From contig JAFWLS010000024.1 in the NCBI GenBank assembly GCA_017514045.1, positions 14,705 through 78,704 on the forward strand: DNA of 64,000 bases, written 5' to 3'. Under the pieces are notes generated by a model. That model had not been told where the DNA came from. It made no database searches and saw only the letters and a program-made list of their open reading frames with translations. The stretch comes from Candidatus Saccharimonadota bacterium. GTDB taxonomy: Bacteria > Patescibacteriota > Saccharimonadia > Saccharimonadales > Saccharimonadaceae. The position numbers were made by a program, and so were the translations under genes. This document shows, in pieces, positions 1,131-42,612 of this stretch. Position 1 is the first letter of the stretch. Every line of letters starts with the position of its first letter.

Positions 1131-4100
1131 TTGAAACCAAAACTAAAAATATTTTTGTTATCAGTCTTATGCTTGGGACTGATTTTTGGTTCTCTATTCA
1201 TCTTCAAAAAAGCCCCTTCGATTGCGTCGTACAGCTATTATGAAACACTCGACATTTCTCATGATTCCTTAAACGGTAATTCTATTTGGGGAGGCGGCGA
1301 AGCTTTCGAAACCGTAGTTTCTGCAGGTGGGCTTGATGGTGCAACTTCTTTTTATTCTGCAACCAATAAAGCTTCTGGTGGTCTCGACACATCTGGCGCG
1401 CTCAGTCTCGAAGGCATCCCGTATCAACTTAGTTGGACAGGCGCCAGTGACTATACAGGCAATGATACTATCAAACTTCAATCAGAAGGCGACAAAGTTT
1501 CTGTTACGCTTGACACGACCGGAGCATTTGCAAAGCTTTACATACTCGGTACCGCTAGCGGATCAAGTGAAGAGAGCTATGCAGAAATCGACGCAACTAT
1601 TCGATACACCGACGGTGCATCTAGCCAGACAAGTTTCCGACTATATGATTGGCGTAGTTCTGCTCAGATCTTAAATGTTTACAAATGGCCTAGCCTTGCT
1701 AGCAGGACGATCGTAGCCGGACAGGAATACAACGGATCAACGACTAGTGCACCATATCTTCAGTCTACCAATATCAACGTCGATCCCGAAAGAGTCATAT
1801 CATCTATCGATCTCGCACTCGCTAGACGAAACGGCGAACCGATTGCAGTTGGCGTATACGCCATTACTGGTATGATTAATAATTCCGCTCCCACTGCTAT
1901 CGAATCTGCGCAAGTTCGCGATGTTGCAGAGACCAATGCTACTGTTTATTGGCGTTCCGTTGTGGGGGCCACTAGCTATCGTCTAGATGTTGCTCAAGAT
2001 GTCAATTTTAAACATATCTTGCCTGATTATAATAACCTATATACACAGGATGATTCGGTAACCATCGCGGGACTTACCGGCAACACCACATATTATGTGC
2101 GCGTGCGTGCTGAAAACTCTGAGGGCCAGAGCGTCAACTCCGGCATTATAGATTTTACAACAGATCCTGAAACAACCCCTCCAACCATTGCCATCATTGC
2201 AAACCCTGGATTGATACAGATCCAAGATAAAGCCAAGATTATTGGCACCGATACCAGTGGGGTTCGTTCCATCGAAGAGAGTTTAGACAGTGGCACAACA
2301 TGGGAAGCAATCGTCGGAGGTGATAGTATCGAACGAACTATCACGAAAAACGGGACCTATTGTTATCGCGCCACCGATAATTATGGCAATATAAGCGAAG
2401 CCTCATGCGTAACTTATGCTAATCTAGACACCGCTAAACCAGTTATACATATTAACACCAATGAGTATACGGAAGGTACATGGACAAATGCTCCAATCAC
2501 TCTATCTATAGAAAACCTTACTGCTAACGTTGGGCAGACAAGCTATTACTATTCGGAAGACTCCCAGGAGTGGACTGCATTCAATGGTACTTTGATTATT
2601 AACGAAGAAACGGACGAAGAGGGCAAGACCTACTATTTTAAAGCTATCAGCCAGGCAAATATAGAAAGCGACATCAGTGCGCTTACAGTTCATCGCGATA
2701 CTACTGCTCCTGCTGGAGAAATCTCAAGCTCGAACAATGGCTGGAATCAATTTCTTAACACCATTACGTTTGGCCTATTCTTCCACGAAACCAAGAATTT
2801 TACTATTGCAGCCTCTGACACTCTATCTGGCATAGACCGTATCGAATACCTTATTTCAGAAGAGGCCTTTGAGTCTAAGGAGGCAGCTATATCATCCGAA
2901 GGCTGGGCCACAACCTCTGGCCTGGTCACCATTGATCCGGAAAAAGACTTCATTCTATATTTTAAAGTCATCGATAAAGCTGGAAATATTTCAATAATTA
3001 ACACCGATGGTATTGTTCTTGACACCACCAGTGCGTCGATTTTGGGATACGTAGACGCTGCCCACACTTACGAGTTAATAGATGGAGAGACCTATTATCT
3101 CATCAGCAAACTCATCATTGAAGACAATCGTGCCCTAAAAACCGTCTTAATTAACGGCCAATCTATCAATCTAAACGACTCTAATATTATCAGTTTAGAT
3201 TCGAATCAGACCTATTCCATCACCGCGATAGATAAAGCCGGTAATCATTCTAATCTCACAATCAAGACCGGTTCGCTTACTGCTCTAGATCTACATGTTA
3301 CAGAGGAGAATTATAAGACTAGCGATCGATCTGGCTTACTAGCAGCAAAGGCCGAATTGGCTAGAATCGCAGAGTCTGAAGGACATTATGCCACTACTGA
3401 TGAACAAGAGACAATCTCTAATCTTATAGCAGAATACGATCGTGTACTCCAGTTGATAGATAGTTTAAATACTAAGCTGATAGACTGTTTCAAATACTAT
3501 TTTTCGATACCGGATGTCGACCACGTCACGAGTTCTAGCTACGATGAGATGCAGACGCTCATCGACAATATTGAATCTTTGCTCGACGTAGATAGTCTTC
3601 ATCTCTCAATCGAAGAAACAAACACATTGCTCATGCAGAAACGCGAACTCGAAGAAAGGCTTCTTCGTCTCGAATCTGTCTCGAGCAGTCTTAATGCCCT
3701 AAACATCATCAATTATACCGATGTCGACATTATCAAAACCGAAGACGAAACAGAACTCAAAACACTTAAAACGATCGCAGAAACATTGCTCGCTGGCGAC
3801 AATTTGACAGATGACGAGCGCGTCACAGTAGAGTCAGAGTTGGACACTATTTGTTTATTATTAGACAGAATCACAGAAGCCACCAATGCGAAGGTCACTA
3901 GTGCTATAAATTTAGCAAAATCGCTAGTTTCAACAGGATATACTAAGAGTGACAAAGACACGCTTTTGTCGGCCAAGGCTGATTTGGAGACCGCCATCAA
4001 ACAATACACCAATAATTATACCGATTCCGAAAAACAAGCCTTAAACGATCAACTAATTGCTGTCGAATTCGCCATTAACGATATCGATAATCAAATGTGG

Positions 4101-6182
4101 GAAGAAATTCGTCGTACGACTTTCCCGACTGTTTCGACTACAGACGCAACGCAAAAATGGACAGCTATAGACACGGTGGGCGTATCTGCCACTGACGAAT
4201 ATGGTATAGATAAGATAGAAGTATCAAGTGATGGCGGGCAAAACTGGGATCTTGTATCTAATTACGATTCAAGTACAACCGACATTACGAAAAATGGCAC
4301 CTATCTATTCCGCGCCACTAATGATTTTGGCAATACTTCAACAAGAGCTGTCACATATCGCAACATAGATGCGGTTGTTCCGGTAATAGCAATCGATACT
4401 CACGGCTATACGCCTGGATCATGGACTAGCCAACCAGTTACCATTAGTATTGCGAACACGGCAAACAACGTCAGTCCAGTTTCCTTATACTATCGTGCGG
4501 TTTCCACTACAGATGGAGACAATGACTGGCTTCCGTATACGACCAGCATACTTATCACAGAAGATACGGTTTCTAGCATATACGAATTTAAGGCTGTCTC
4601 CGAATCTGGCGTCGAAAGTACCGTCGAGAGCATTGAAGTTAAGAGAGATTCAGTTTGTCCGACGGGGAACATTTCTACAGGTACGAATACAATCAACAGT
4701 ATTTTGAATACCGTTACTTTTGGGCTACTCTTCGACGAAACTAAAACCTACACCATGATTGCCGACGACGCAAGCTCTGGAATAAATACCATAGAGTACT
4801 TAATCTCTGAGGCCGAACTTACCGAGTCTGAACTGGCAGAATCAGCCAATTGGCGAATCACAAACGGTACCGTCTCCGTTGATCCGAACAAGCCGACCAC
4901 CATTTACTATCGCGTTACGGATCGCGCCGGCAATACATCCGTAGTTAGTCTTTCGGGAGTTGTCTTTGATCTACCTGGTCTTTCCGAAGCAGGAATCTCC
5001 ATTGTGACCGAAGACAATAATTCTTCGACGCTCGTGACAAGCTCAGGAGCAATTGTGCTCGTTTCGGATCTCGCGCATACAACTACTGAAGATTTAGCGG
5101 CACTTGCTAATACTAGAGACGAGCTTTTGAACTATCTAGAAAAACACCCTGACGATACATCTGGTATTGTGAACAGTATTGTGTCCGACTATGCCAACAC
5201 TATTAGAGAACTAGAAGAGACTGAAAGTAGTCTCGCTATGATAAGAAACTCCTATATCGAAACAAGTTCAAACCCCGTTACATCGAGTGATAAAGTATCT
5301 ATTTCCACCCTTATCGCAACTATTGTCAGTACCGAAGAGACAAACAGCAATCATCTAACCGCCTCTGAACATCGAGAGCTCGACGATAAACTTAGCACCC
5401 TCTCTAATGTGCTTACAAATCTCGAAGCGATTCGGGCTGAACTTGAAGCAATAGATGCTAGCGTAGGTGGTTATAATATCAATACTGTGACTAAAGACGA
5501 TTTAGGGAACCTGGCTCTACTTAAAACACAAATCAACGAGCTATTAAATAGTCCTGATGTGGCCGACTCGGACAAAGAACATCTTCAGGAGCTTCTAGCC
5601 ACTATCGCGGAGTTAGAGGCTCGTATCGCTGAAGTGCAAAAGGCACTAGAAGAAGCTAAGGAGAACGATCATGTGGGCGGAATCACCCCGGGAAACGTTA
5701 CTCCGGCTGACCAAACATCCCTAGAGGACGCCGCCAGAACATACGCAGAAGCGCTCGGCGTCTTTGACTCGAATCTTTCTTTATCCGATATTTTCGACAT
5801 CAATAACAGAATCGCCATCATCAACTCCGCTCTCGATGTACTTAGTCAAGTCTCTGAGTTCGAAGCGATTGTTTCTCGCTTGCCGAACCCAGAAGATGTC
5901 GATTATAATTCGCGCCTGCTCATCAAAGCTGCAGAGGATGCATATAATGCTCTGTCTGAGTACGGACGCTCGTTGGTGGGCCCAAGCCTATTAGCCAGAT
6001 ATCGAGCCGTGCTCGAATCGTATCGTGCCTATCTTGAAGGGTCGCCACTCCTCTACGCCTTCGAGACACTCGATATCTTTTGGTGGGCTTTATCCACCCT
6101 TGCGGTCATGGGCATATTTATATTGATTGTCCGCCATACTCATAAACACTATATTGATGCCTACGATTTTGACGATTTCTAG
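1131..6182 (+). CDS. giant membrane-anchored surface protein (FN3 domain, two Ig-like module blocks, FIVAR-like helical repeats, C-terminal TM)
   Basis: The ORF is open from GTG 1110. In-frame TTG 1131 lies 4 nt after GGAGG (1122-1126) and gives MKPKLKIFLLSVLCLGLIF, a signal/anchor-like N-terminus. An FN3-like segment (VYWRSVVGATSYRLDV...YYVRVRAEN) lies at about 1893-2165. The C-terminal hydrophobic stretch WWALSTLAVMGIFILIV is followed by a charged tail. Confidence 0.75.
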   Translation: MKPKLKIFLLSVLCLGLIFGSLFIFKKAPSIASYSYYETLDISHDSLNGNSIWGGGEAFETVVSAGGLDGATSFYSATNKASGGLDTSGALSLEGIPYQLSWTGASDYTGNDTIKLQSEGDKVSVTLDTTGAFAKLYILGTASGSSEESYAEIDATIRYTDGASSQTSFRLYDWRSSAQILNVYKWPSLASRTIVAGQEYNGSTTSAPYLQSTNINVDPERVISSIDLALARRNGEPIAVGVYAITGMINNSAPTAIESAQVRDVAETNATVYWRSVVGATSYRLDVAQDVNFKHILPDYNNLYTQDDSVTIAGLTGNTTYYVRVRAENSEGQSVNSGIIDFTTDPETTPPTIAIIANPGLIQIQDKAKIIGTDTSGVRSIEESLDSGTTWEAIVGGDSIERTITKNGTYCYRATDNYGNISEASCVTYANLDTAKPVIHINTNEYTEGTWTNAPITLSIENLTANVGQTSYYYSEDSQEWTAFNGTLIINEETDEEGKTYYFKAISQANIESDISALTVHRDTTAPAGEISSSNNGWNQFLNTITFGLFFHETKNFTIAASDTLSGIDRIEYLISEEAFESKEAAISSEGWATTSGLVTIDPEKDFILYFKVIDKAGNISIINTDGIVLDTTSASILGYVDAAHTYELIDGETYYLISKLIIEDNRALKTVLINGQSINLNDSNIISLDSNQTYSITAIDKAGNHSNLTIKTGSLTALDLHVTEENYKTSDRSGLLAAKAELARIAESEGHYATTDEQETISNLIAEYDRVLQLIDSLNTKLIDCFKYYFSIPDVDHVTSSSYDEMQTLIDNIESLLDVDSLHLSIEETNTLLMQKRELEERLLRLESVSSSLNALNIINYTDVDIIKTEDETELKTLKTIAETLLAGDNLTDDERVTVESELDTICLLLDRITEATNAKVTSAINLAKSLVSTGYTKSDKDTLLSAKADLETAIKQYTNNYTDSEKQALNDQLIAVEFAINDIDNQMWEEIRRTTFPTVSTTDATQKWTAIDTVGVSATDEYGIDKIEVSSDGGQNWDLVSNYDSSTTDITKNGTYLFRATNDFGNTSTRAVTYRNIDAVVPVIAIDTHGYTPGSWTSQPVTISIANTANNVSPVSLYYRAVSTTDGDNDWLPYTTSILITEDTVSSIYEFKAVSESGVESTVESIEVKRDSVCPTGNISTGTNTINSILNTVTFGLLFDETKTYTMIADDASSGINTIEYLISEAELTESELAESANWRITNGTVSVDPNKPTTIYYRVTDRAGNTSVVSLSGVVFDLPGLSEAGISIVTEDNNSSTLVTSSGAIVLVSDLAHTTTEDLAALANTRDELLNYLEKHPDDTSGIVNSIVSDYANTIRELEETESSLAMIRNSYIETSSNPVTSSDKVSISTLIATIVSTEETNSNHLTASEHRELDDKLSTLSNVLTNLEAIRAELEAIDASVGGYNINTVTKDDLGNLALLKTQINELLNSPDVADSDKEHLQELLATIAELEARIAEVQKALEEAKENDHVGGITPGNVTPADQTSLEDAARTYAEALGVFDSNLSLSDIFDINNRIAIINSALDVLSQVSEFEAIVSRLPNPEDVDYNSRLLIKAAEDAYNALSEYGRSLVGPSLLARYRAVLESYRAYLEGSPLLYAFETLDIFWWALSTLAVMGIFILIVRHTHKHYIDAYDFDDF
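2245..3030 (+). repeat. copy 1 of an internal ~260-aa coding duplication (Ig-like module block)
   Basis: ...SLDSGTTWEAI...ITKNGTYCYRATDNYGN...TAPAGEISSSNNGWNQFLNTITFGLFFHETK...SGIDRIEYLISE... aligns by eye with the block at 4189-4970. Confidence 0.7.
4189..4970 (+). repeat. copy 2 of the internal ~260-aa coding duplication
   Basis: ...SSDGGQNWDLV...ITKNGTYLFRATNDFGN...VCPTGNISTGTNTINSILNTVTFGLLFDETK...SGINTIEYLISE... is paralogous to 2245-3030. Confidence 0.7.
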
Positions 6183-6298
6183 ACCGATGTCAGAACGAAG
6201 GCACATATTTTACAAAAATAAGAATTATTATATAAAAACCGAACAAACCGAACAGAGATATACCGAAATTAAAACATAAAAAATATATAAAATCAATA

Positions 6299-36746: not shown

Positions 36747-38750
36747 ATGGTAAAGCTGCTTCAGAATTTTTTGAACTGGGTACGCGGGATAAAGTCACCT
36801 GTCACAGACGCAGAGAAAACACTACTATCTCCTGATGGCACCATCAAGCTCAAGATTACCCTCCGCCAGGGCCACATTTCTTATTCTGTTATGAGGGGCG
36901 ACGCTATTCTTATTCGTGATTCGAAACTTGGAATAAAAGTCAAAGATCTTCCGCCAATCACCGATCATCTATCGGTTGTGCGCACCACGGAGAAGTCTGT
37001 CAACGAGACCTGGGAAACAGTTTGGGGGGAAGAACGCCTTATTGTGAATGCCTATAATGAGATTACGTTATATCTTTCTGAAACCTCTAAGTCTGAACGC
37101 CTTTTCACGCTACGCTTTCGCGCCTTTAACGACGGTATAGCCTTTCGCTATGAGCTCCCGCCACAACCGGCATTTTCTCGCATAGAAATCGAAGACGAGC
37201 TCACAGAGTTCAATGTGGACCTAAACGCCAATTCTTGGTCAATCCCTGCTTATCAACCAGATCGTTACGAGTATAACTATGAGAAAAAGCCAGTATATGA
37301 GTTAGAAAAATCCGTACACACTCCATTAACAATTATTCTTCCAAATAAATACCATCTCAGCATTCACGAAGCCGCCCTGTACAACTATGGAGAAATGACT
37401 ATTAAACTTGACGAATGGAAAGCCCTCAAATCAGACATCACCCCATTGTCGGATGGTATTAAAGCACGCGTTGAACTGCCCTTCAATACGCCATGGCGTC
37501 TTGTAATGATAGCCAATTCTCCTATCGGGCTAATCAAGAATCATATCATGCTGAATCTTAACGATCCACCGACTGAAGACTATTCCTGGGTTAGACCGAT
37601 TAAGTTCCTAGGAATCTGGTGGGCAATGTATGTTGGCGAATGGACATGGGCATCCGGTCCACGACATGGCGCTACTACACAACACGCCATCGAATACATT
37701 GACGCCTGTAGCCGCTTAGGTGTACAAGGACTTCTTCTTGAAGGATGGAATGGTGGTTGGGATGGCGACTGGCTCCAAAATGGCAAGACTACCGATTTCA
37801 TTCATCCTATGCCAGACTGTGATTTGCCAGGCATCGCTGAATATGCACGTGCAAAGGGCATAGATATCGTTGGCCATCACGAAACTGTTGGATTTATAGA
37901 CAACTACGAGGCTCAACTCGAAGCAAGCTACAAATACTATGCTGATTTAGGTATTCGCTACATTAAGCCAGGATATGCTGGCTCCATGATGTCTATCCAG
38001 GGCAAGAGGGAATACCATCATTCGCAACTTGGTGTTCTTCACTACCAGAAATCTCTTGAGCTCGCCGCCAAATACCACATTTGTCTTGATGTCCACGAGC
38101 CAATTAAAGGCACTGGGATTGAACGCACCTTCCCGAACCTTCTCACGCGCGAAGGAGCGCGAGGACAAGAATATGAAGGTGGGGCTCTTAGTCCGTCGCA
38201 TGCTTGTATCCTGCCATTCACACGATTATTGTCCGGAGCTATGGACTATACGCCTGGTATTTTCGACATCACTAATACCACTAAACGCCTTTCTTCTACT
38301 CTAGCTCGTCAACTTGCCTATTTTGTCACTATTCCGTCTGGCATGCAGATGGCGGCTGATCGACCTCATTTCTACGAAGAAGTAAATCCTGGCGCATATA
38401 AGTTCATTCGCGACGTACCGGTCAACTGGGAGCACTCTGTGCCAATTCTAGGATCTATAGGCGAATACTATGTAATAGCACGCAAAGAACGCAACGGCGA
38501 TAATTGGTTCATAGGGGGAGTTACTAACGAAGAGGCTCATAAGGTACGTATTCCGTTAGACTTTCTCGACGACTCATCTACGTACACTGCAGAGATATAC
38601 CGTGATTCCGAAACCGCCCATTTTCGCGATAATCCTCTAGATATACACATCGAAACAACTGAAGTAACAAAAAATAACTATATCGACGTTTGGATGGCAC
38701 CTGGCGGAGGTTTTGCTATCGCCATAAAGAAGCATACTCAAGGTCAATAA
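36747..38750 (+). CDS. glycoside hydrolase family 97 (alpha-glucosidase/alpha-galactosidase family)
   Basis: IKPGYAG...EYHHSQLGVLHYQKSLELAAKYHICLDVHEPIKGTGIERTFPNLLTREGARGQEYEG matches the GH97 catalytic-region pattern known from SusB. No signal peptide is visible. Confidence 0.85.
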   Translation: MVKLLQNFLNWVRGIKSPVTDAEKTLLSPDGTIKLKITLRQGHISYSVMRGDAILIRDSKLGIKVKDLPPITDHLSVVRTTEKSVNETWETVWGEERLIVNAYNEITLYLSETSKSERLFTLRFRAFNDGIAFRYELPPQPAFSRIEIEDELTEFNVDLNANSWSIPAYQPDRYEYNYEKKPVYELEKSVHTPLTIILPNKYHLSIHEAALYNYGEMTIKLDEWKALKSDITPLSDGIKARVELPFNTPWRLVMIANSPIGLIKNHIMLNLNDPPTEDYSWVRPIKFLGIWWAMYVGEWTWASGPRHGATTQHAIEYIDACSRLGVQGLLLEGWNGGWDGDWLQNGKTTDFIHPMPDCDLPGIAEYARAKGIDIVGHHETVGFIDNYEAQLEASYKYYADLGIRYIKPGYAGSMMSIQGKREYHHSQLGVLHYQKSLELAAKYHICLDVHEPIKGTGIERTFPNLLTREGARGQEYEGGALSPSHACILPFTRLLSGAMDYTPGIFDITNTTKRLSSTLARQLAYFVTIPSGMQMAADRPHFYEEVNPGAYKFIRDVPVNWEHSVPILGSIGEYYVIARKERNGDNWFIGGVTNEEAHKVRIPLDFLDDSSTYTAEIYRDSETAHFRDNPLDIHIETTEVTKNNYIDVWMAPGGGFAIAIKKHTQGQ

Positions 38751-38813
38751 TAGTAGATAGCTATTGGTTATTTTTGTCTTTTTATGATAATATACTATAG
38801 ATTGTACATTTAT

Positions 38814-38889
38814 ACGGGTGTAGCTCAGTTGGTAGAGCACTGGTCTCCAAAACCAGGTGTCGGGAGTTCGAGTCTCTCCACCCGTGCCA
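38814..38889 (+). tRNA. tRNA-Trp (anticodon CCA), CCA encoded
   Basis: Acceptor ACGGGTG/CACCCGT. Anticodon arm CTGGT-CTCCAAA-ACCAG. T arm GGGAG-TTCGAGT-CTCTC. Confidence 0.9.
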
Positions 38890-39018
38890 TTGTGAAATTA
38901 AGTCCTCTTTGAGGCTTTTTTTATCTGTAAATTGTCGGTTTGAGCCGCATCGGATTGACTCTTCAATTCCGGGTACTACCCAACAGCTTGATTATACTTC
39001 TTATGGTTTCTAATATTA

Positions 39019-39027
39019 TGGTATAAT
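39019..39027 (+). promoter_or_regulatory. extended -10 box TGGTATAAT for the FxLYD/G5 gene cluster
   Basis: Exact TGnTATAAT 36 nt upstream of ATG 39064, which is SD-led (aaagg). Confidence 0.5.
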
Positions 39028-39063
39028 AGATTCAAAGCACCTAATTTAATTAGAAAGGTATCT

Positions 39064-39537
39064 ATGGATACAGAAGAAAAAAAAGTTAACAAAAAGGAAA
39101 AACGAAAGATTCTTGACGTATTCTTAACTGTCGGAGTCACTATCGTGTTGTGCGTAACGGTCGTAGCTACGTTTCTCACATTTATCCAAGTTCAAAAGTT
39201 ATCACGTAATATGGACATCGTGAAGAACAATGTTTGGATTGAAAAAACAAATTCTTACGATAACGGTTCATCATCGTTCTTTGATCACAAGGTTGAAGCC
39301 GTTAAAAAAGACAGTAAAGATGGAAACTATATTAAAGGTGAGTTAATAAATCGTAGTGGTCAGAGAATTACGGAGGCTACAGTTTATTTTAAACTATACG
39401 ATAAAGATGGTAATCTCGTAGATTGGTCATCGGACAGTATCAAAACATGGGATTCTGGCGAAAAGTGGATTTACAACGCCTACTTCCCAGAAGGCTCAAC
39501 AAAATACGAATTTGCTGAATTTGATATAGCATACTAG
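39064..39537 (+). CDS. FxLYD-domain membrane protein
   Basis: Lys-rich N-terminus, one TM, then IKGELINRSGQRITEATVYFKLYDKDGNLV (FxLYD motif). Confidence 0.55.
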   Translation: MDTEEKKVNKKEKRKILDVFLTVGVTIVLCVTVVATFLTFIQVQKLSRNMDIVKNNVWIEKTNSYDNGSSSFFDHKVEAVKKDSKDGNYIKGELINRSGQRITEATVYFKLYDKDGNLVDWSSDSIKTWDSGEKWIYNAYFPEGSTKYEFAEFDIAY

Positions 39538-39553
39538 AAGAGGACCATTCGTT

Positions 39554-40300
39554 ATGCGTTGGTCGTCTCATCTGAAAAAGCCTGCAAAAGTATTCATCAT
39601 TATTATGGTGTTCGTTGTACTGTTATTCCTTGCCGGCATTATTTACCTAGAAGTAACAGACAGTCTTTCGTTCGAATCAATTTCTCATTACTTTGTAGGC
39701 GACACAGAAAGCGAAATCACCGTTGACGAAGAAATACCATACGAAAAACAAGAAATAAAAGATAGTAATTTAGATGAAGGCGTGACCGAAATAAGGCAAG
39801 AAGGAAAGAAAGGCAAAAAAACAATTACCTTTAGGGTCACAAAAGACAAAGATGGAAACGAAATAAACCGAGTATATGTCGGTGAAAAAGTAGCTGCTGA
39901 GGCTGTAGATGAGATAATCGCAATCGGCACAAGAGCACCAGCAACAGCTAATAGCAATGATAATCAGGGCGGTCAATCAGGTGCTAACAGTCAACAGCAA
40001 GCTAGCAATTCAACTAGCACTCAACCGACCACCCCTGCTACTAATCAAAATTCTCAACAACAAACTAATAACAATTCGCAGCCAAACAACAACGGACCAC
40101 ACTATTGCACTAGCCCATATCAAATAGAACAAGGCGATGAAGGGTGGTACGTAAAGGTTAATATCCCTTGCTCCGAAATGTATGGAAAATGGTCTGCATA
40201 CACAGTCGAAGTAGCCGAAGCTGATTATTATTCTAGAAAAGTATGCAACAAGCAAGCCGGCCCAGCCGATTTGATTATTGAAGTGAGGTGCGGAAAGTAA
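39554..40300 (+). CDS. G5-domain membrane protein, paralogue 1
   Basis: TM anchor. G5 domain (EIPYEKQEIKDSNLDEGVTEIRQEGKKGKKTITFRVTKDKDGNEINRVYVGEKVAAEAVDEIIAIGTR). Q/N/S-rich linker. 4-Cys C-terminal module. Confidence 0.8.
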   Translation: MRWSSHLKKPAKVFIIIMVFVVLLFLAGIIYLEVTDSLSFESISHYFVGDTESEITVDEEIPYEKQEIKDSNLDEGVTEIRQEGKKGKKTITFRVTKDKDGNEINRVYVGEKVAAEAVDEIIAIGTRAPATANSNDNQGGQSGANSQQQASNSTSTQPTTPATNQNSQQQTNNNSQPNNNGPHYCTSPYQIEQGDEGWYVKVNIPCSEMYGKWSAYTVEVAEADYYSRKVCNKQAGPADLIIEVRCGK

Positions 40301-40351
40301 CTATCTTTTAGAACATATTAAATGTTTATATAACAACAAAAGAGAACTATT

Positions 40352-41158
40352 ATGCATTGGCTATCTAACCTAAAGCATTCGCAGAAAGTGTTCGTTACCA
40401 TTGCCGCAGTAATGACGCTTATCCTACTTTTTGTAATCTTCTTTTTTGAAATAAAGAACAACAAACTAGCCGATGTTATGCCGCGATTTTTCAATGGCGA
40501 CACGGAGAGCGAGATTTCTGTAGACGAAGTAATACCTTTCGAGAAAAAAGAAATTGATGATGAAAATCTTGAAATAGGTAAGAAGGAGACCAAGCAAGAA
40601 GGTGTCAATGGCAGGAAGAAGATAGTTTTTAGAGTAACGATGGACAGCGAAGGAAATGTAATAAACCGAACGGTGCTGCGAGAAGAAATAGTGTCTGAAC
40701 CCACAGACGAAATAATACTTATAGGAAAGAAAGAGTATGGAAGCGCTTCTGAAGCGGGAGGTAATTACTCTGCGCAGACACCATACTCTTCTAACGATTA
40801 CTCTCAGAATCAACAAGGTAATAACGACAAAAGTAGCGAGAGCGTACCGCAAAGTAGCGGCAGTAACGATACTGACCCTATACGCTTTTGCAAAAGAATG
40901 TGGCCGTACGGGACTAGAGAGAATCCATATATAGTCTACTATATGGTCAGAACCACCCAATCGTGCCAAGAATACATTGGCCGATGGGATGTAGACGGAC
41001 GTTCGTATACAGAAGTCACAAGTGAGGAATTTTACTCCGCCGATTTCGTATCATCGGGACCAATCGTTTTGGGGTTTAACTGCACGATTCTAGAGTCGAG
41101 ACAAAAGCAATGCCCAAATTGGTATAATGGTGGCATCGAAGCATGCAGCGGCAATTAG
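40352..41158 (+). CDS. G5-domain membrane protein, paralogue 2
   Basis: Same layout. G5 (VIPFEKKEIDDENLEIGKKETKQEGVNGRKKIVFRVTMDSEGNVINRTVLREEIVSEPTDEIILIGKK). Divergent 5-Cys C-terminal module. Confidence 0.8.
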   Translation: MHWLSNLKHSQKVFVTIAAVMTLILLFVIFFFEIKNNKLADVMPRFFNGDTESEISVDEVIPFEKKEIDDENLEIGKKETKQEGVNGRKKIVFRVTMDSEGNVINRTVLREEIVSEPTDEIILIGKKEYGSASEAGGNYSAQTPYSSNDYSQNQQGNNDKSSESVPQSSGSNDTDPIRFCKRMWPYGTRENPYIVYYMVRTTQSCQEYIGRWDVDGRSYTEVTSEEFYSADFVSSGPIVLGFNCTILESRQKQCPNWYNGGIEACSGN

Positions 41159-41193
41159 GAGCAGTAGTATAAGATTTAAAACGAAAGAAACAA

Positions 41194-42024
41194 ATGCATA
41201 GATTAACGAAACTCAAAAAACCAACAAAAATATTCATCATTATAATGTTGATTATAACGATTGGGCTTATCTGTCTAGCCGCTTATTCTGAAGTATCTGA
41301 TTATAAGTTGGGTGAGGCAATGTCTAGGTTTTTTACTGGTGACACAGAGAGTGAAATTTCTGTAGACGAAGTAATTCCGTACAAAAAACAGGAAGTTAAA
41401 GATGAAAATCTTAATGAGGGGACAAGCGAAATAAGACAAGAAGGAAAAGACGGTAAAAAGAAAATCATATTCAGGGTCACCAAAGATAAGGATGGCAACG
41501 AAATAAACCGGAATTATATCGGTGAAGAAGTAATCGACGAGGCCGTAGACGAAATCGTAGCAATCGGCACAAAAGTTCCAGCACCAGCAAACAATAATTA
41601 TAGCCAAAGCGGTTGGTCTAATAGCGGAGGGACACAATCCTATAGTAACAGCGGTAACTCTCAGCCATCTGGGAACAGCCCGCAGTCGTCTAGCAACAAC
41701 TCTCAGCCATCCGATAATAAGCCATCTTCATCAAATCAAGGTCCAAGTGCCACCTCAGAAATCCATTATTGTACGAATCCAAATTTAACAAATGAATACT
41801 ACACTACCAAACAAAATGACCATCGGTACTGCGTGCATATGAAGCATTACTACATAAAGACAAATTACCAATGTGGGCAGACTGGATCTTATTGGGATAG
41901 ATATAATATAGAAGTTTCAAGTGACGAGTATTATTCTTACGATTTATGCAATCCGGACGTTCCTAAAAAAGACGTTGTACTTGAAGCTAGATGTGAAAGC
42001 AGATGGTATTATTATTACGAATAA
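41194..42024 (+). CDS. G5-domain membrane protein, paralogue 3
   Basis: Same layout. The G5 region is roughly 80% identical at DNA level to paralogue 1 by eye. 5-Cys C-terminal module ending RWYYYYE. Confidence 0.8.
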   Translation: MHRLTKLKKPTKIFIIIMLIITIGLICLAAYSEVSDYKLGEAMSRFFTGDTESEISVDEVIPYKKQEVKDENLNEGTSEIRQEGKDGKKKIIFRVTKDKDGNEINRNYIGEEVIDEAVDEIVAIGTKVPAPANNNYSQSGWSNSGGTQSYSNSGNSQPSGNSPQSSSNNSQPSDNKPSSSNQGPSATSEIHYCTNPNLTNEYYTTKQNDHRYCVHMKHYYIKTNYQCGQTGSYWDRYNIEVSSDEYYSYDLCNPDVPKKDVVLEARCESRWYYYYE

Positions 42025-42278
42025 AAAGCCCCCAACGGAGTAAAAGCGAAGCTATTAACTGATTATTATAATAATACATTGGCATCCTTATGGAGTCGCA
42101 AATACTTGTTAAGATTTTTGCGACAACGATTTCACGCTAGTTGTCAACCTCCTCGTAAAGAGTTCTCCAGAGATTCAAACCTGGAATATGTATTACCTCA
42201 CCTCACGCCCCGACAGAGCCGGAGCACACATTTGGGCCTCCTGGGGGTCTGCACCCCGTCAAATTTGAGACAAAAATA

Positions 42279-42306
42279 TAGTGGGAATGACCCCTACTAT
42301 ATTTTT
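42279..42306. terminator. AT-rich hairpin plus T-run, possible bidirectional terminator
   Basis: atatagtggg, a loop, then cccctactatat with a 2-nt bulge, followed by ttttt. An A-run lies upstream. Confidence 0.4.
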
Positions 42307-42467
42307 ACAAGAGTATAAAAATTTTTTAGTTCAATCTTTTCAGCTTCCCATTTTAGCGGAAATTTTCAAAAACTTTTTTACGCCTGATTCATTTCTACAC
42401 CTAGAGCGCCGAGGATATCGAGACGAATGATGGTTCCAACTTCTTTCACTAGGGTGTGCCATTAGAA

Positions 42468-42497
42468 TAAAAAAATAACCCCACGGGGTCATTTTTT
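42468..42497. terminator. possible bidirectional terminator
   Basis: A7, then a short accc/gggt hairpin, then T6. Confidence 0.4.
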
Positions 42498-42596
42498 ATT
42501 CTAACTACGATATAGTTGGAGAGACGAGAACCTATATAGTCTGAACCACCAAAAGATGGGAATAGCCACAAAACCATAGCCAAAATAGAACGGTAG

Positions 42597-42605
42597 TGCT
42601 AAAAT
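42597..42605 (+). promoter_or_regulatory. extended -10 box TGCTAAAAT, 7 nt before the glycosyltransferase ATG (leaderless layout)
   Basis: TGCTAAAAT, then aagtata, then ATG 42613. Confidence 0.5.
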
Positions 42606-42612
42606 AAGTATA

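Follow-up and report, generated by a model that had tools for sequence, protein, structure and literature searches.

We analysed a window of 64,000 nt (contig JAFWLS010000024.1 of assembly GCA_017514045.1, positions 14,705–78,704 of the forward strand), which represents contig C21 of the genome of a Candidatus Saccharimonadota bacterium; this genome measures 845 kb and is 98.6 % complete. The named proteins most closely related to those of the window belong to Candidatus Saccharibacteria. Its + strand carries a cassette of four genes (39064–42024) encoding an FxLYD-domain leader protein followed by three G5-domain membrane proteins, designated G5a, G5b and G5c, each ending in a small, Cys-rich C-terminal module (the tip). 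Comparison with nine further loci indicates that the diversity of these tips arose by replacement of whole modules on a conserved G5 stalk, and not by accelerated point substitution. We assign a probability of roughly 50 % to the reading that the cassette is a modular cell-surface display system of Saccharibacteria, predicted to bind surface ligands through swappable tips. The features of the cassette are as follows (TM, transmembrane segment; AF2, AlphaFold2):

39064..39537, + strand, FxLYD leader gene, 157 aa (NF038353, 52.2 bits)
39322..39510, + strand, FxLYD domain, residues 87–149, motif FKLYD (NCBIfam envelope; invariant alignment block)
39554..40300, + strand, G5a, 248-aa type II membrane protein (PF07501, 68.5 bits); G5 at 39710–39934, linker at 39935–40093
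40094..40297, + strand, tip type a, 68 aa, four Cys (C1–C4) (alignment; clade with L005_1, 99/96)
40352..41158, + strand, G5b, 268-aa paralogue (PF07501, 61.6 bits); G5 at 40508–40732, linker at 40733–40876
40877..41155, + strand, tip type b, 93 aa, C1/C2/C5/C6 plus one extra Cys (clade of six sequences, 97/97)
41194..42024, + strand, G5c, 276-aa paralogue (PF07501, 67.2 bits; AF2 model); G5 at 41350–41574, linker at 41575–41754
41755..42021, + strand, tip type c, 89 aa, five Cys, 18 % Tyr (AF2 on the tip alone; composition)

Architecture of the G5 proteins

An earlier sequence-only reading of the window had described four same-strand genes separated by 16, 51 and 35 nt and led by an FxLYD protein, and both points agree with the open reading frame (ORF) listing and with the score of the leader against NF038353 (cut-off 23). 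Its assignment of G5 domains to the last three genes is likewise borne out, since PF07501 (gathering cut-off 23) aligns with all three over 74–75 of its 75 profile positions and a Foldseek search with the G5 part retrieved the G5 domains of Aap, SasG, HP0197, RpfB, IgA1 protease and StrH, with E-values of about 1e-6 to 1e-4. Matches to structures 4fun, 4fzq, 3tip, 3eo5 and 6oh1 had E-values of 1e-6 to 1e-5 and a root-mean-square deviation of 1.4–3 Å over ca. 78 residues. The shared basic N-terminal tail, proposed as LKKPxKVF, was found as LKKPAKVF, LKHSQKVF and LKKPTKIF, and is followed by the TM, the G5 domain, a Q/N/S-rich disordered linker and a tip of 68–93 aa, the last falling within the 65–95 aa expected for the C-terminal module. 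In an AF2 model of G5c, built from an alignment of 20 sequences, residues 9–47 form a long TM helix and residues 51–127 the G5 domain, with a predicted local distance difference test (pLDDT) of about 90; the linker (residues 134–187) is disordered, with pLDDT below 50, and the C-terminal module is folded. The succession of a basic tail and a hydrophobic helix suggests an N-in/C-out topology.

All of these proteins contain a single G5 domain and an N-terminal TM anchor, and lack a sorting signal. As in the known G5 surface proteins (Aap/SasG, S. suis HP0197, IgA1 protease, StrH, RpfB and YabE), their G5 domain is bona fide by profile and fold and is predicted to be extracytoplasmic and associated with the envelope; its position before a small C-terminal domain recalls RpfB and YabE. 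They differ from these proteins in having only one G5 domain, in being attached by an N-terminal signal-anchor instead of an LPXTG or choline-binding anchor, in the absence of E-spacer repeats, DUF348 or any known catalytic or binding domain, in their new, swappable tip, and in the linked FxLYD gene. Thus, the tandem G5-E repeats and the LPXTG anchor of the biofilm adhesins Aap/SasG are both missing, as are the N-terminal DUF348 and the C-terminal Rpf or 3D domains of RpfB/YabE, which were found neither in the cassette proteins by Pfam nor in the tip by fold.

The window genome contains only one other G5 gene, coding for a 357-aa housekeeping-type YabE/RpfB-like protein (G000:C16:65306-65521; L001 1153–2226, minus strand) directly upstream of ksgA/rsmA. 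We recognised this protein by its sequence and by the genes beside it, not by the Pfam scan; it is unrelated to the cassette.

Tips diversify by module replacement

The sequence-only reading had attributed the strong divergence of the C-termini to diversifying selection on a ligand-binding tip, and had proposed a comparison of nonsynonymous and synonymous divergence (dN/dS) by region. We made this comparison on codon alignments by the Nei-Gojobori method, separately for each region. The proportion of synonymous differences (pS) among the three window paralogues was 0.72–0.94 in every region; synonymous sites are therefore saturated and the ratio is undefined between paralogues. Values of dN were 0.6–1.0 for the tip, 0.53–0.62 for the N-terminus and TM, 0.5–1.6 for the linker and 0.16–0.33 for G5. 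The conserved outlier is thus the G5 domain, and the tip is not more diverged than the N-terminus/TM or the linker. The C-terminal divergence is real, with window tips 23–38 % identical and window G5 domains 56–76 % identical, but it shows no excess over those other regions. The G5 stalk regions of G5a and G5c, estimated by eye at about 80 % DNA identity, are 74 % identical in DNA and 76 % in protein. With pS this high in every region, the window paralogues are old.

Comparisons between orthologues are more informative about selection. The tip of G5a is 84 % identical to that of its L005 orthologue (omega 0.13) and the tip of G5b is 65 % identical to those of L008_2 and L029_1 (omega about 0.15); L008_2 and L029_1 have tips 92 % identical (omega 0.03) on G5 domains that are only 72 % identical. 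In orthologous tips, purifying selection is thus no weaker than on G5, and the linker is the fastest-evolving part in all orthologous pairs.

The opposite pattern was found between L008_2 and L026_2, whose G5 domains are 93 % identical (dS 0.71) and whose tips are 31 % identical. In a sliding-window comparison of these two cassettes, nucleotide identity is 88–95 % across the FxLYD gene and 75–93 % in the part of gene 2 that encodes the N-terminus and G5, falling abruptly at the G5/linker border to ca. 42 %, a background level that persists from there into the flanks. Tip and stalk phylogenies also disagree. The tip tree contains deep, supported clades corresponding to discrete types (type a, 99/96; type b, 97/97; the P0013 type, 100/98; and the P0010/14/17 type, 99/97), which are mutually only ca. 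25–45 % identical, whereas the tree of the N-terminus plus G5 is nearly star-like and groups the sequences differently. With the tip data, the approximately unbiased (AU) test rejected a clade of the stalk tree (p = 6e-65); with the stalk data, it rejected the type b clade (p = 0.016).

The incongruence of stalk and tip, the sharp border and the purifying selection within types together indicate that tip diversity derives from module replacement and not from accelerated point substitution. These sequence comparisons show an exchange of linker plus tip, as a whole unit, between stalks by recombination, with a breakpoint at the G5/linker border. Diversifying selection in place, on the tips of recently duplicated paralogues, would account for the lower identity of the window tips relative to their G5 domains, but is hardly tenable and was largely refuted here: pS is at least 0.72 everywhere, as expected for old paralogues, the N-terminus/TM is as diverged as the tips, orthologous tips have omega values of 0.03–0.15, and the deep tip clades are incongruent with the stalk tree. 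The pattern is unusually clean, combining an ultra-conserved partner, a conserved stalk, and tips that are swapped yet individually maintained by purifying selection, and it illustrates that what looks like fast tip evolution in a single genome can really be the result of cassette exchange.

The tip is a probable new domain family

Across the family, tips are 56–112 aa long and share the signature HYC...[KR]T.xPC...EVSSxEYYS...G...LExR...C...C, in which positions E, S, E and R are invariant. Of the Cys framework and G.W motif described for the three window tips, C1 and C2 are invariant, but G.W is not conserved across the family. Two optional pairs, C3/C4 and C5/C6, are each gained or lost as a pair, the behaviour expected of disulfide partners; two or three predicted disulfides would therefore brace each tip. 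The tips are rich in Cys (ca. 5 % vs a background of 0.4 %) and Tyr (6–18 % vs 4.5 %), and most are mildly acidic. Two DsbA-like Thioredoxin_4 proteins are present in the window genome, which lacks a VKOR-type oxidase. Modeled alone from 17 sequences, tip c is mainly beta with two short helices (pLDDT 82.7; predicted template modeling score, pTM, 0.72).

A match of the C-terminal module to a known housekeeping domain would have contradicted the sequence-only reading, but the tip matched nothing in Pfam or NCBIfam, and the best structural hits of its model, in PDB (E = 3.3) and in BFVD (E = 0.84), were not significant. Among 5.8 billion proteins, a word-indexed search identified 20 relatives of the family, one of which is a YabE-like protein with the different architecture DUF348-G5-3D. 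An exhaustive search of 1.84 billion cluster representatives with a tip profile yielded 12 matches, two of them false positives consisting of Cys-free repeats; nine of the ten true matches have the order TM-G5-linker-tip and the tenth (P0022) is a fragment with linker and tip. From these searches, the tip appears to be a previously undescribed domain family of small size (ca. 60–110 aa). Tip type c did not have a close orthologue among the sequences found.

We also observed some departures from the common pattern. Tips b and c each contain an odd fifth Cys (in FNC and RYC, respectively) that does not occur in their relatives, and tip b is the most diverged member of its tight type, with 65–68 % identity vs more than 90 % among the others. 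The protein encoded at 6001–6849 of L010 (P0019) has the same tail, TM and G5 domain, but its C-terminal domain of 97 aa is unrelated and lacks the Cys framework.

The order of G5 followed by a domain of ca. 70–90 aa, together with the invariant E, S, E and R, could be taken to mean that the tip is a new peptidoglycan-cleaving or -binding domain and that the proteins remodel the wall as RpfB and YabE do. That the only other G5 protein of the genome is YabE-like and lies by ksgA, and that a CHAP gene follows the cassette in L028, would fit this idea, which we nevertheless regard as very improbable. The fold of the tip is unlike Rpf, lysozyme, 3D/DPBB or any hydrolase, identity between tip types is only ca. 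25–45 % and in one cassette the tip is unrelated, a YabE-like gene exists in the genome apart from the cassette, and the accessory and rare character of the cassette (see below) argues against a housekeeping function.

A near-invariant leader linked to the G5 genes

The survey of copy number and C-terminal variants suggested by the sequence-only reading gave nine further independent loci (L005/6, L007/8/9, L010/11/12, L019/L034, L026/27, L028, L029/30, L031 and L035), for a sample of ca. 10 loci that lie mostly on short contigs. In all 10, one to three G5 genes follow the FxLYD gene at a distance of 5–16 nt, although the contig of L035 is too short to show the gene downstream of the leader, and the neighbouring genes are unrelated. 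The leader was identified by a hidden Markov model in L005–L011 and by alignment to the family in the remaining loci. As had been proposed from the window, the array is a family of paralogues in which the G5 stalk is conserved and the C-terminal module is the variable part that probably faces the ligand.

The leader is predicted to be a bitopic membrane protein, in which a TM segment joins a basic tail to an ectodomain of ca. 110 aa, and contains the F-x-L-Y-D motif within the sequence YFKLYDKDG, which is invariant across all loci. Its ectodomain is 87–100 % identical among the eight closest loci, with dN of 0.00–0.08 and pS of 0.43–0.98; such identity at high pS indicates very strong purifying selection and not recent transfer. 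As other members of the FxLYD family (NF038353; phrog_14275), the leader has the FKLYD motif and the usual N-terminal TM anchor, but differs from them in its near-invariance and its strict association with G5-tip genes; to our knowledge, no such linkage has been described for other FxLYD proteins. The G5-tip genes are therefore the first conserved genomic partner for the FxLYD domain and might offer a handle on its function. Searches of PDB by sequence and profile found no FxLYD relative, and literature searches retrieved no paper containing 'FxLYD' and none for 'Saccharibacteria' plus 'G5 domain'.

The leader is more conserved than chromosomal genes of the same contig in three loci. Relative to the window genome, the L010 contig has identities of 45 % for RpsB and 33 % for EF-Ts vs 69 % for FxLYD, the L028 contig 55 % for DinB vs 93 %, and the L031 contig 59 % for a Mur ligase vs 82 %. 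The order is reversed in L019, with L10 at 69 % and L7/L12 at 91 % but FxLYD at 54 %. This incongruence between the cassette tree and genome relatedness indicates horizontal transfer. In L005, the leader (5784–5984) has lost its 5′ part: it encodes 66 aa from a new start codon, lacks a TM and lies beside an intact G5a orthologue. The 57 codons that are left share 98 % identity with the window leader despite a pS of 0.72.

The conserved N-terminal part and the clearly demarcated, recombining and discrete C-termini, as well as the tandem disposition, location in islands and horizontal mobility, are reminiscent of polymorphic toxin systems such as CDI CdiA-CT, Rhs and MafB, in the classification of Zhang and Aravind. 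The cassette proteins could by analogy be released effectors or bacteriocin-like peptides, with a tip that is cut off in the linker and acts on competitors or on the wall of the host, and with FxLYD as a processing or protective partner. The small size of the domain and its four to six Cys would suit this function, and a parallel exists in halocin C8: its precursor of 283 aa confers immunity through the N-terminal part and releases the halocin as a Cys-rich C-terminal peptide of 76 aa (10.64898/2026.07.27.741052). The halocin precursor ProC8 (TIGR04449, NF040679) and the cassette proteins have in common a length of ca. 250–280 aa, a Cys-rich end of ca. 70–90 aa and a membrane/immunity-type N-terminal part, and G5c weakly matches NF040679 (17 bits).

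We consider a released effector unlikely, however. The match to NF040679 is far below the cut-off of 200 bits and involves only residues 12–126 of G5c (TM and G5), no member of this family scored above cut-off in 300 genomes of the phylum, and none of 17 tips matched the halocin C8 domain at E-values up to 1 or any toxin family. Besides these unmatched models, the cassette differs from halocin C8 in lacking a Tat (twin-arginine translocation) signal and linked ABC transporter or regulator genes. Membership of the halocin C8 family was rejected because of the scores and the absence of the domain, and we retain halocin C8 solely as a functional analogy. Relative to polymorphic toxins, the cassette proteins are small (ca. 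250–280 aa) and membrane-anchored, and lack a cognate immunity gene, a toxin or trafficking domain in Pfam/NCBIfam and a pre-toxin junction motif. The gaps of 51 and 35 nt contain no ORF of at least 50 aa, and hence no immunity-sized gene, and the same holds for two-gene cassettes; moreover, FxLYD is invariant despite the variation of the tips, with which the stalks do not co-vary either, so that there is no type-specific immunity partner. No linked protease or ABC exporter was found, the predominance of mildly acidic tips also speaks against this function, and the family alignment shows no conserved cleavage motif at the linker/tip border.

Distribution and genomic setting

A profile of the FxLYD leader detected the cassette in none of 60 congeners. 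It was likewise absent from ca. 300 genomes of the family, with a single marginal match (E = 8e-4) covering only the TM-proximal profile positions 38–80, and from all 200 genomes of a sample of the order. Among 185,579 species representatives, a single other one carries the cassette, and JGI metagenomes yielded only two contigs with it. These sequence data show a rare, horizontally moving accessory element.

In the congeners, the interval formed by a GH97 gene, tRNA-Trp and a glycosyltransferase (GT) gene, which in the window contains the cassette, is a hotspot of varying cargo and rearrangement. In many congeners tRNA-Trp lies only about 45–120 bp from the GT gene, and in most its orientation is the inverse of that in the window. 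Among those compared (G496–G524), at least 14 have it a short distance 5′ of the GT gene and on the opposite strand, whereas it is co-directional with the GT gene in G498 and G516. The nearest congener, G503, whose flanks are 76–78 % identical in nucleotides, resembles the window in that tRNA-Trp adjoins GH97 and the cargo is situated between tRNA and GT gene. The slot of G503 (L015, G503:C8) is occupied by genes for an 847-aa DUF285 BspA-like repeat protein (2153–4696) and a 168-aa protein without family match (4898–5404), and in G514 a gene with a weak similarity to Thy1 (24.1 bits against a cut-off of 24.8) lies between GH97 and tRNA.

Other cassette loci have neighbours of diverse kinds, including type I restriction-modification (R-M) genes, an McrA-like HNH gene with an SLFN helicase, an AAA_15 ATPase, an integrase with a transposase, DUF285 proteins, a CHAP protein and a type IV secretion system pilin. 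Specifically, the P0019 gene of L010 adjoins type I R-M genes and L011 has the integrase and transposase alongside, the cassettes of L019 and L034 are flanked by two DUF285 genes, and the CHAP-domain gene is 3′ of the cassette in L028. The DUF285/BspA-like surface islands of Saccharibacteria resemble the cassette in being accessory, predicted to be surface-exposed and variable among species, and in their positions in G503 and in L019/L034; their products differ in having large, leucine-rich-like repeats vs a small stalk and tip.

An att-type insertion at tRNA-Trp was rejected, as direct repeats of the 3′ end of the tRNA flanking the cassette were not found, and the window interval does not contain an integrase. 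Homology between cassettes starts inside the FxLYD coding region, indicating that there are no conserved element termini. Natural competence, which is reported for Saccharibacteria (PMC10187176, preprint version of PMC10633639), might offer a route of transfer for the cassette.

Five of the nine neighbourhoods contain defence or mobile genes, and the cassette is patchy and horizontally transferred, features that would fit a module for phage exclusion or envelope defence, masking the surface or blocking the entry of phage DNA as prophage superinfection exclusion (Sie) proteins do. FxLYD proteins do occur in the lysogeny module of Firmicutes phages beside a cI-like repressor (L023; phrog_14275): in L023, an IMG/VR contig, a phage protein composed of a zinc ribbon, a TM and FxLYD is encoded at 5698–6216, between repressor-like and cI-like helix-turn-helix genes, a position typical of morons and exclusion genes. 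We nonetheless judge this function quite improbable, since PADLOC gave only chance-level matches (E = 0.002–0.01, 14–16 bits), the matches of the L023 protein to PHROG 'superinfection exclusion' families are limited to the TM and the low-complexity N-terminus, and phage exclusion would leave the swappable tip without a reason. The G5-tip family has no relative on IMG/VR viral contigs. A phage origin of the G5-tip genes was also rejected, given the lack of such a relative and the restriction of distant phage homologues to the FxLYD domain.

A candidate surface-display system

In the modular surface-display system that we favour, each G5 gene would produce a single-pass, N-in/C-out protein with a basic tail, a TM, a membrane-proximal G5 stalk, a disordered Q/N/S/P-rich spacer of ca. 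50–60 residues, which may be long enough to cross the wall, and a tip. Tips would exist as discrete types, each maintained by purifying selection, and linker plus tip would be recombined between stalks as a unit; as cassettes contain one to three G5 genes, each genome would have its own tip repertoire. The FxLYD protein would act as an obligate partner, presumably contacting the G5 stalk/TM or a conserved envelope component, and could be a scaffold, a co-receptor or an assembly factor; its interaction with the G5 proteins is suggested solely by the linkage of the genes. Candidate ligands are host-cell or wall glycans or proteins of host Actinobacteria, and swapping of a tip would then change specificity.

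Several points weigh against this proposal. Neither fold nor sequence similarity links the tip to a known lectin, carbohydrate-binding module or adhesin; the truncated leader of L005 next to an intact G5 gene implies that the FxLYD partner may be dispensable; the five neighbourhoods with defence or mobile genes would also suit a conflict-related role; and the choice of both groups for the AU tests was made with the trees already in view.

Host recognition and binding by the ultrasmall Patescibacteria are described as largely unknown beyond type IV pili (PMC12206443, PMC9894109), and the cassette is a compact candidate for a modular surface-recognition device. More tentatively, it is possible that it constitutes an unrecognised specificity system of episymbiotic Saccharibacteria, in which an exchangeable recognition tip with a new, Tyr-rich fold held by disulfides, presented on a G5 stalk with an invariant FxLYD co-factor, is traded between distant lineages by natural transformation. 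If so, the tip repertoire would help decide which host bacteria or surface glycans can be attached to or exploited. Only ca. 10 loci were found in the public data searched, and the general importance of the system would therefore be limited unless tips determine host range.

Sequences flanking the cassette

The remaining features of the interval are the following:

38814..38889, + strand, tRNA-Trp (CCA), directly 5′ of the cassette (ARAGORN and Rfam)
39019..39027, + strand, extended −10 promoter-like element TGGTATAAT, 37 nt 5′ of the FxLYD start codon (read directly from the sequence)
42025..42612, no strand, gene-free spacer of 588 bp between the cassette and the GT4/5 gene (part of the inserted interval)

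The putative promoter element TGGTATAAT was not called in a scan for two-hexamer promoters. Direct reading also identified a GAAAGG Shine-Dalgarno sequence between this element and the FxLYD start, and further Shine-Dalgarno sequences 5′ of the other cassette genes. A leader RNA is not present in front of the FxLYD gene: the 177 nt 5′ of it had no significant RNA fold (z = −0.13 vs shuffled sequences), and the upstream space is shorter than 70 nt in several cassette loci.

The 588-bp spacer showed no similarity to other cassette loci, and no structural RNA was found in it, with no Rfam hit above the gathering threshold (best E = 0.067). It contains two hairpins, a strong one with 20-nt arms (42462–42504) and another with 14-nt arms (42272–42306), and is followed 3′ by a glycogen-type operon with GT4/5 and GH57 genes.

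Positions 38001–42000 are the sole part of the window with a positive GC skew (+0.03 to +0.06), and the AT skew is also highest there (0.22). This composition is compatible with the Lys/Glu/Asn/Gln-rich coding of the cassette, with a foreign origin, or with both.

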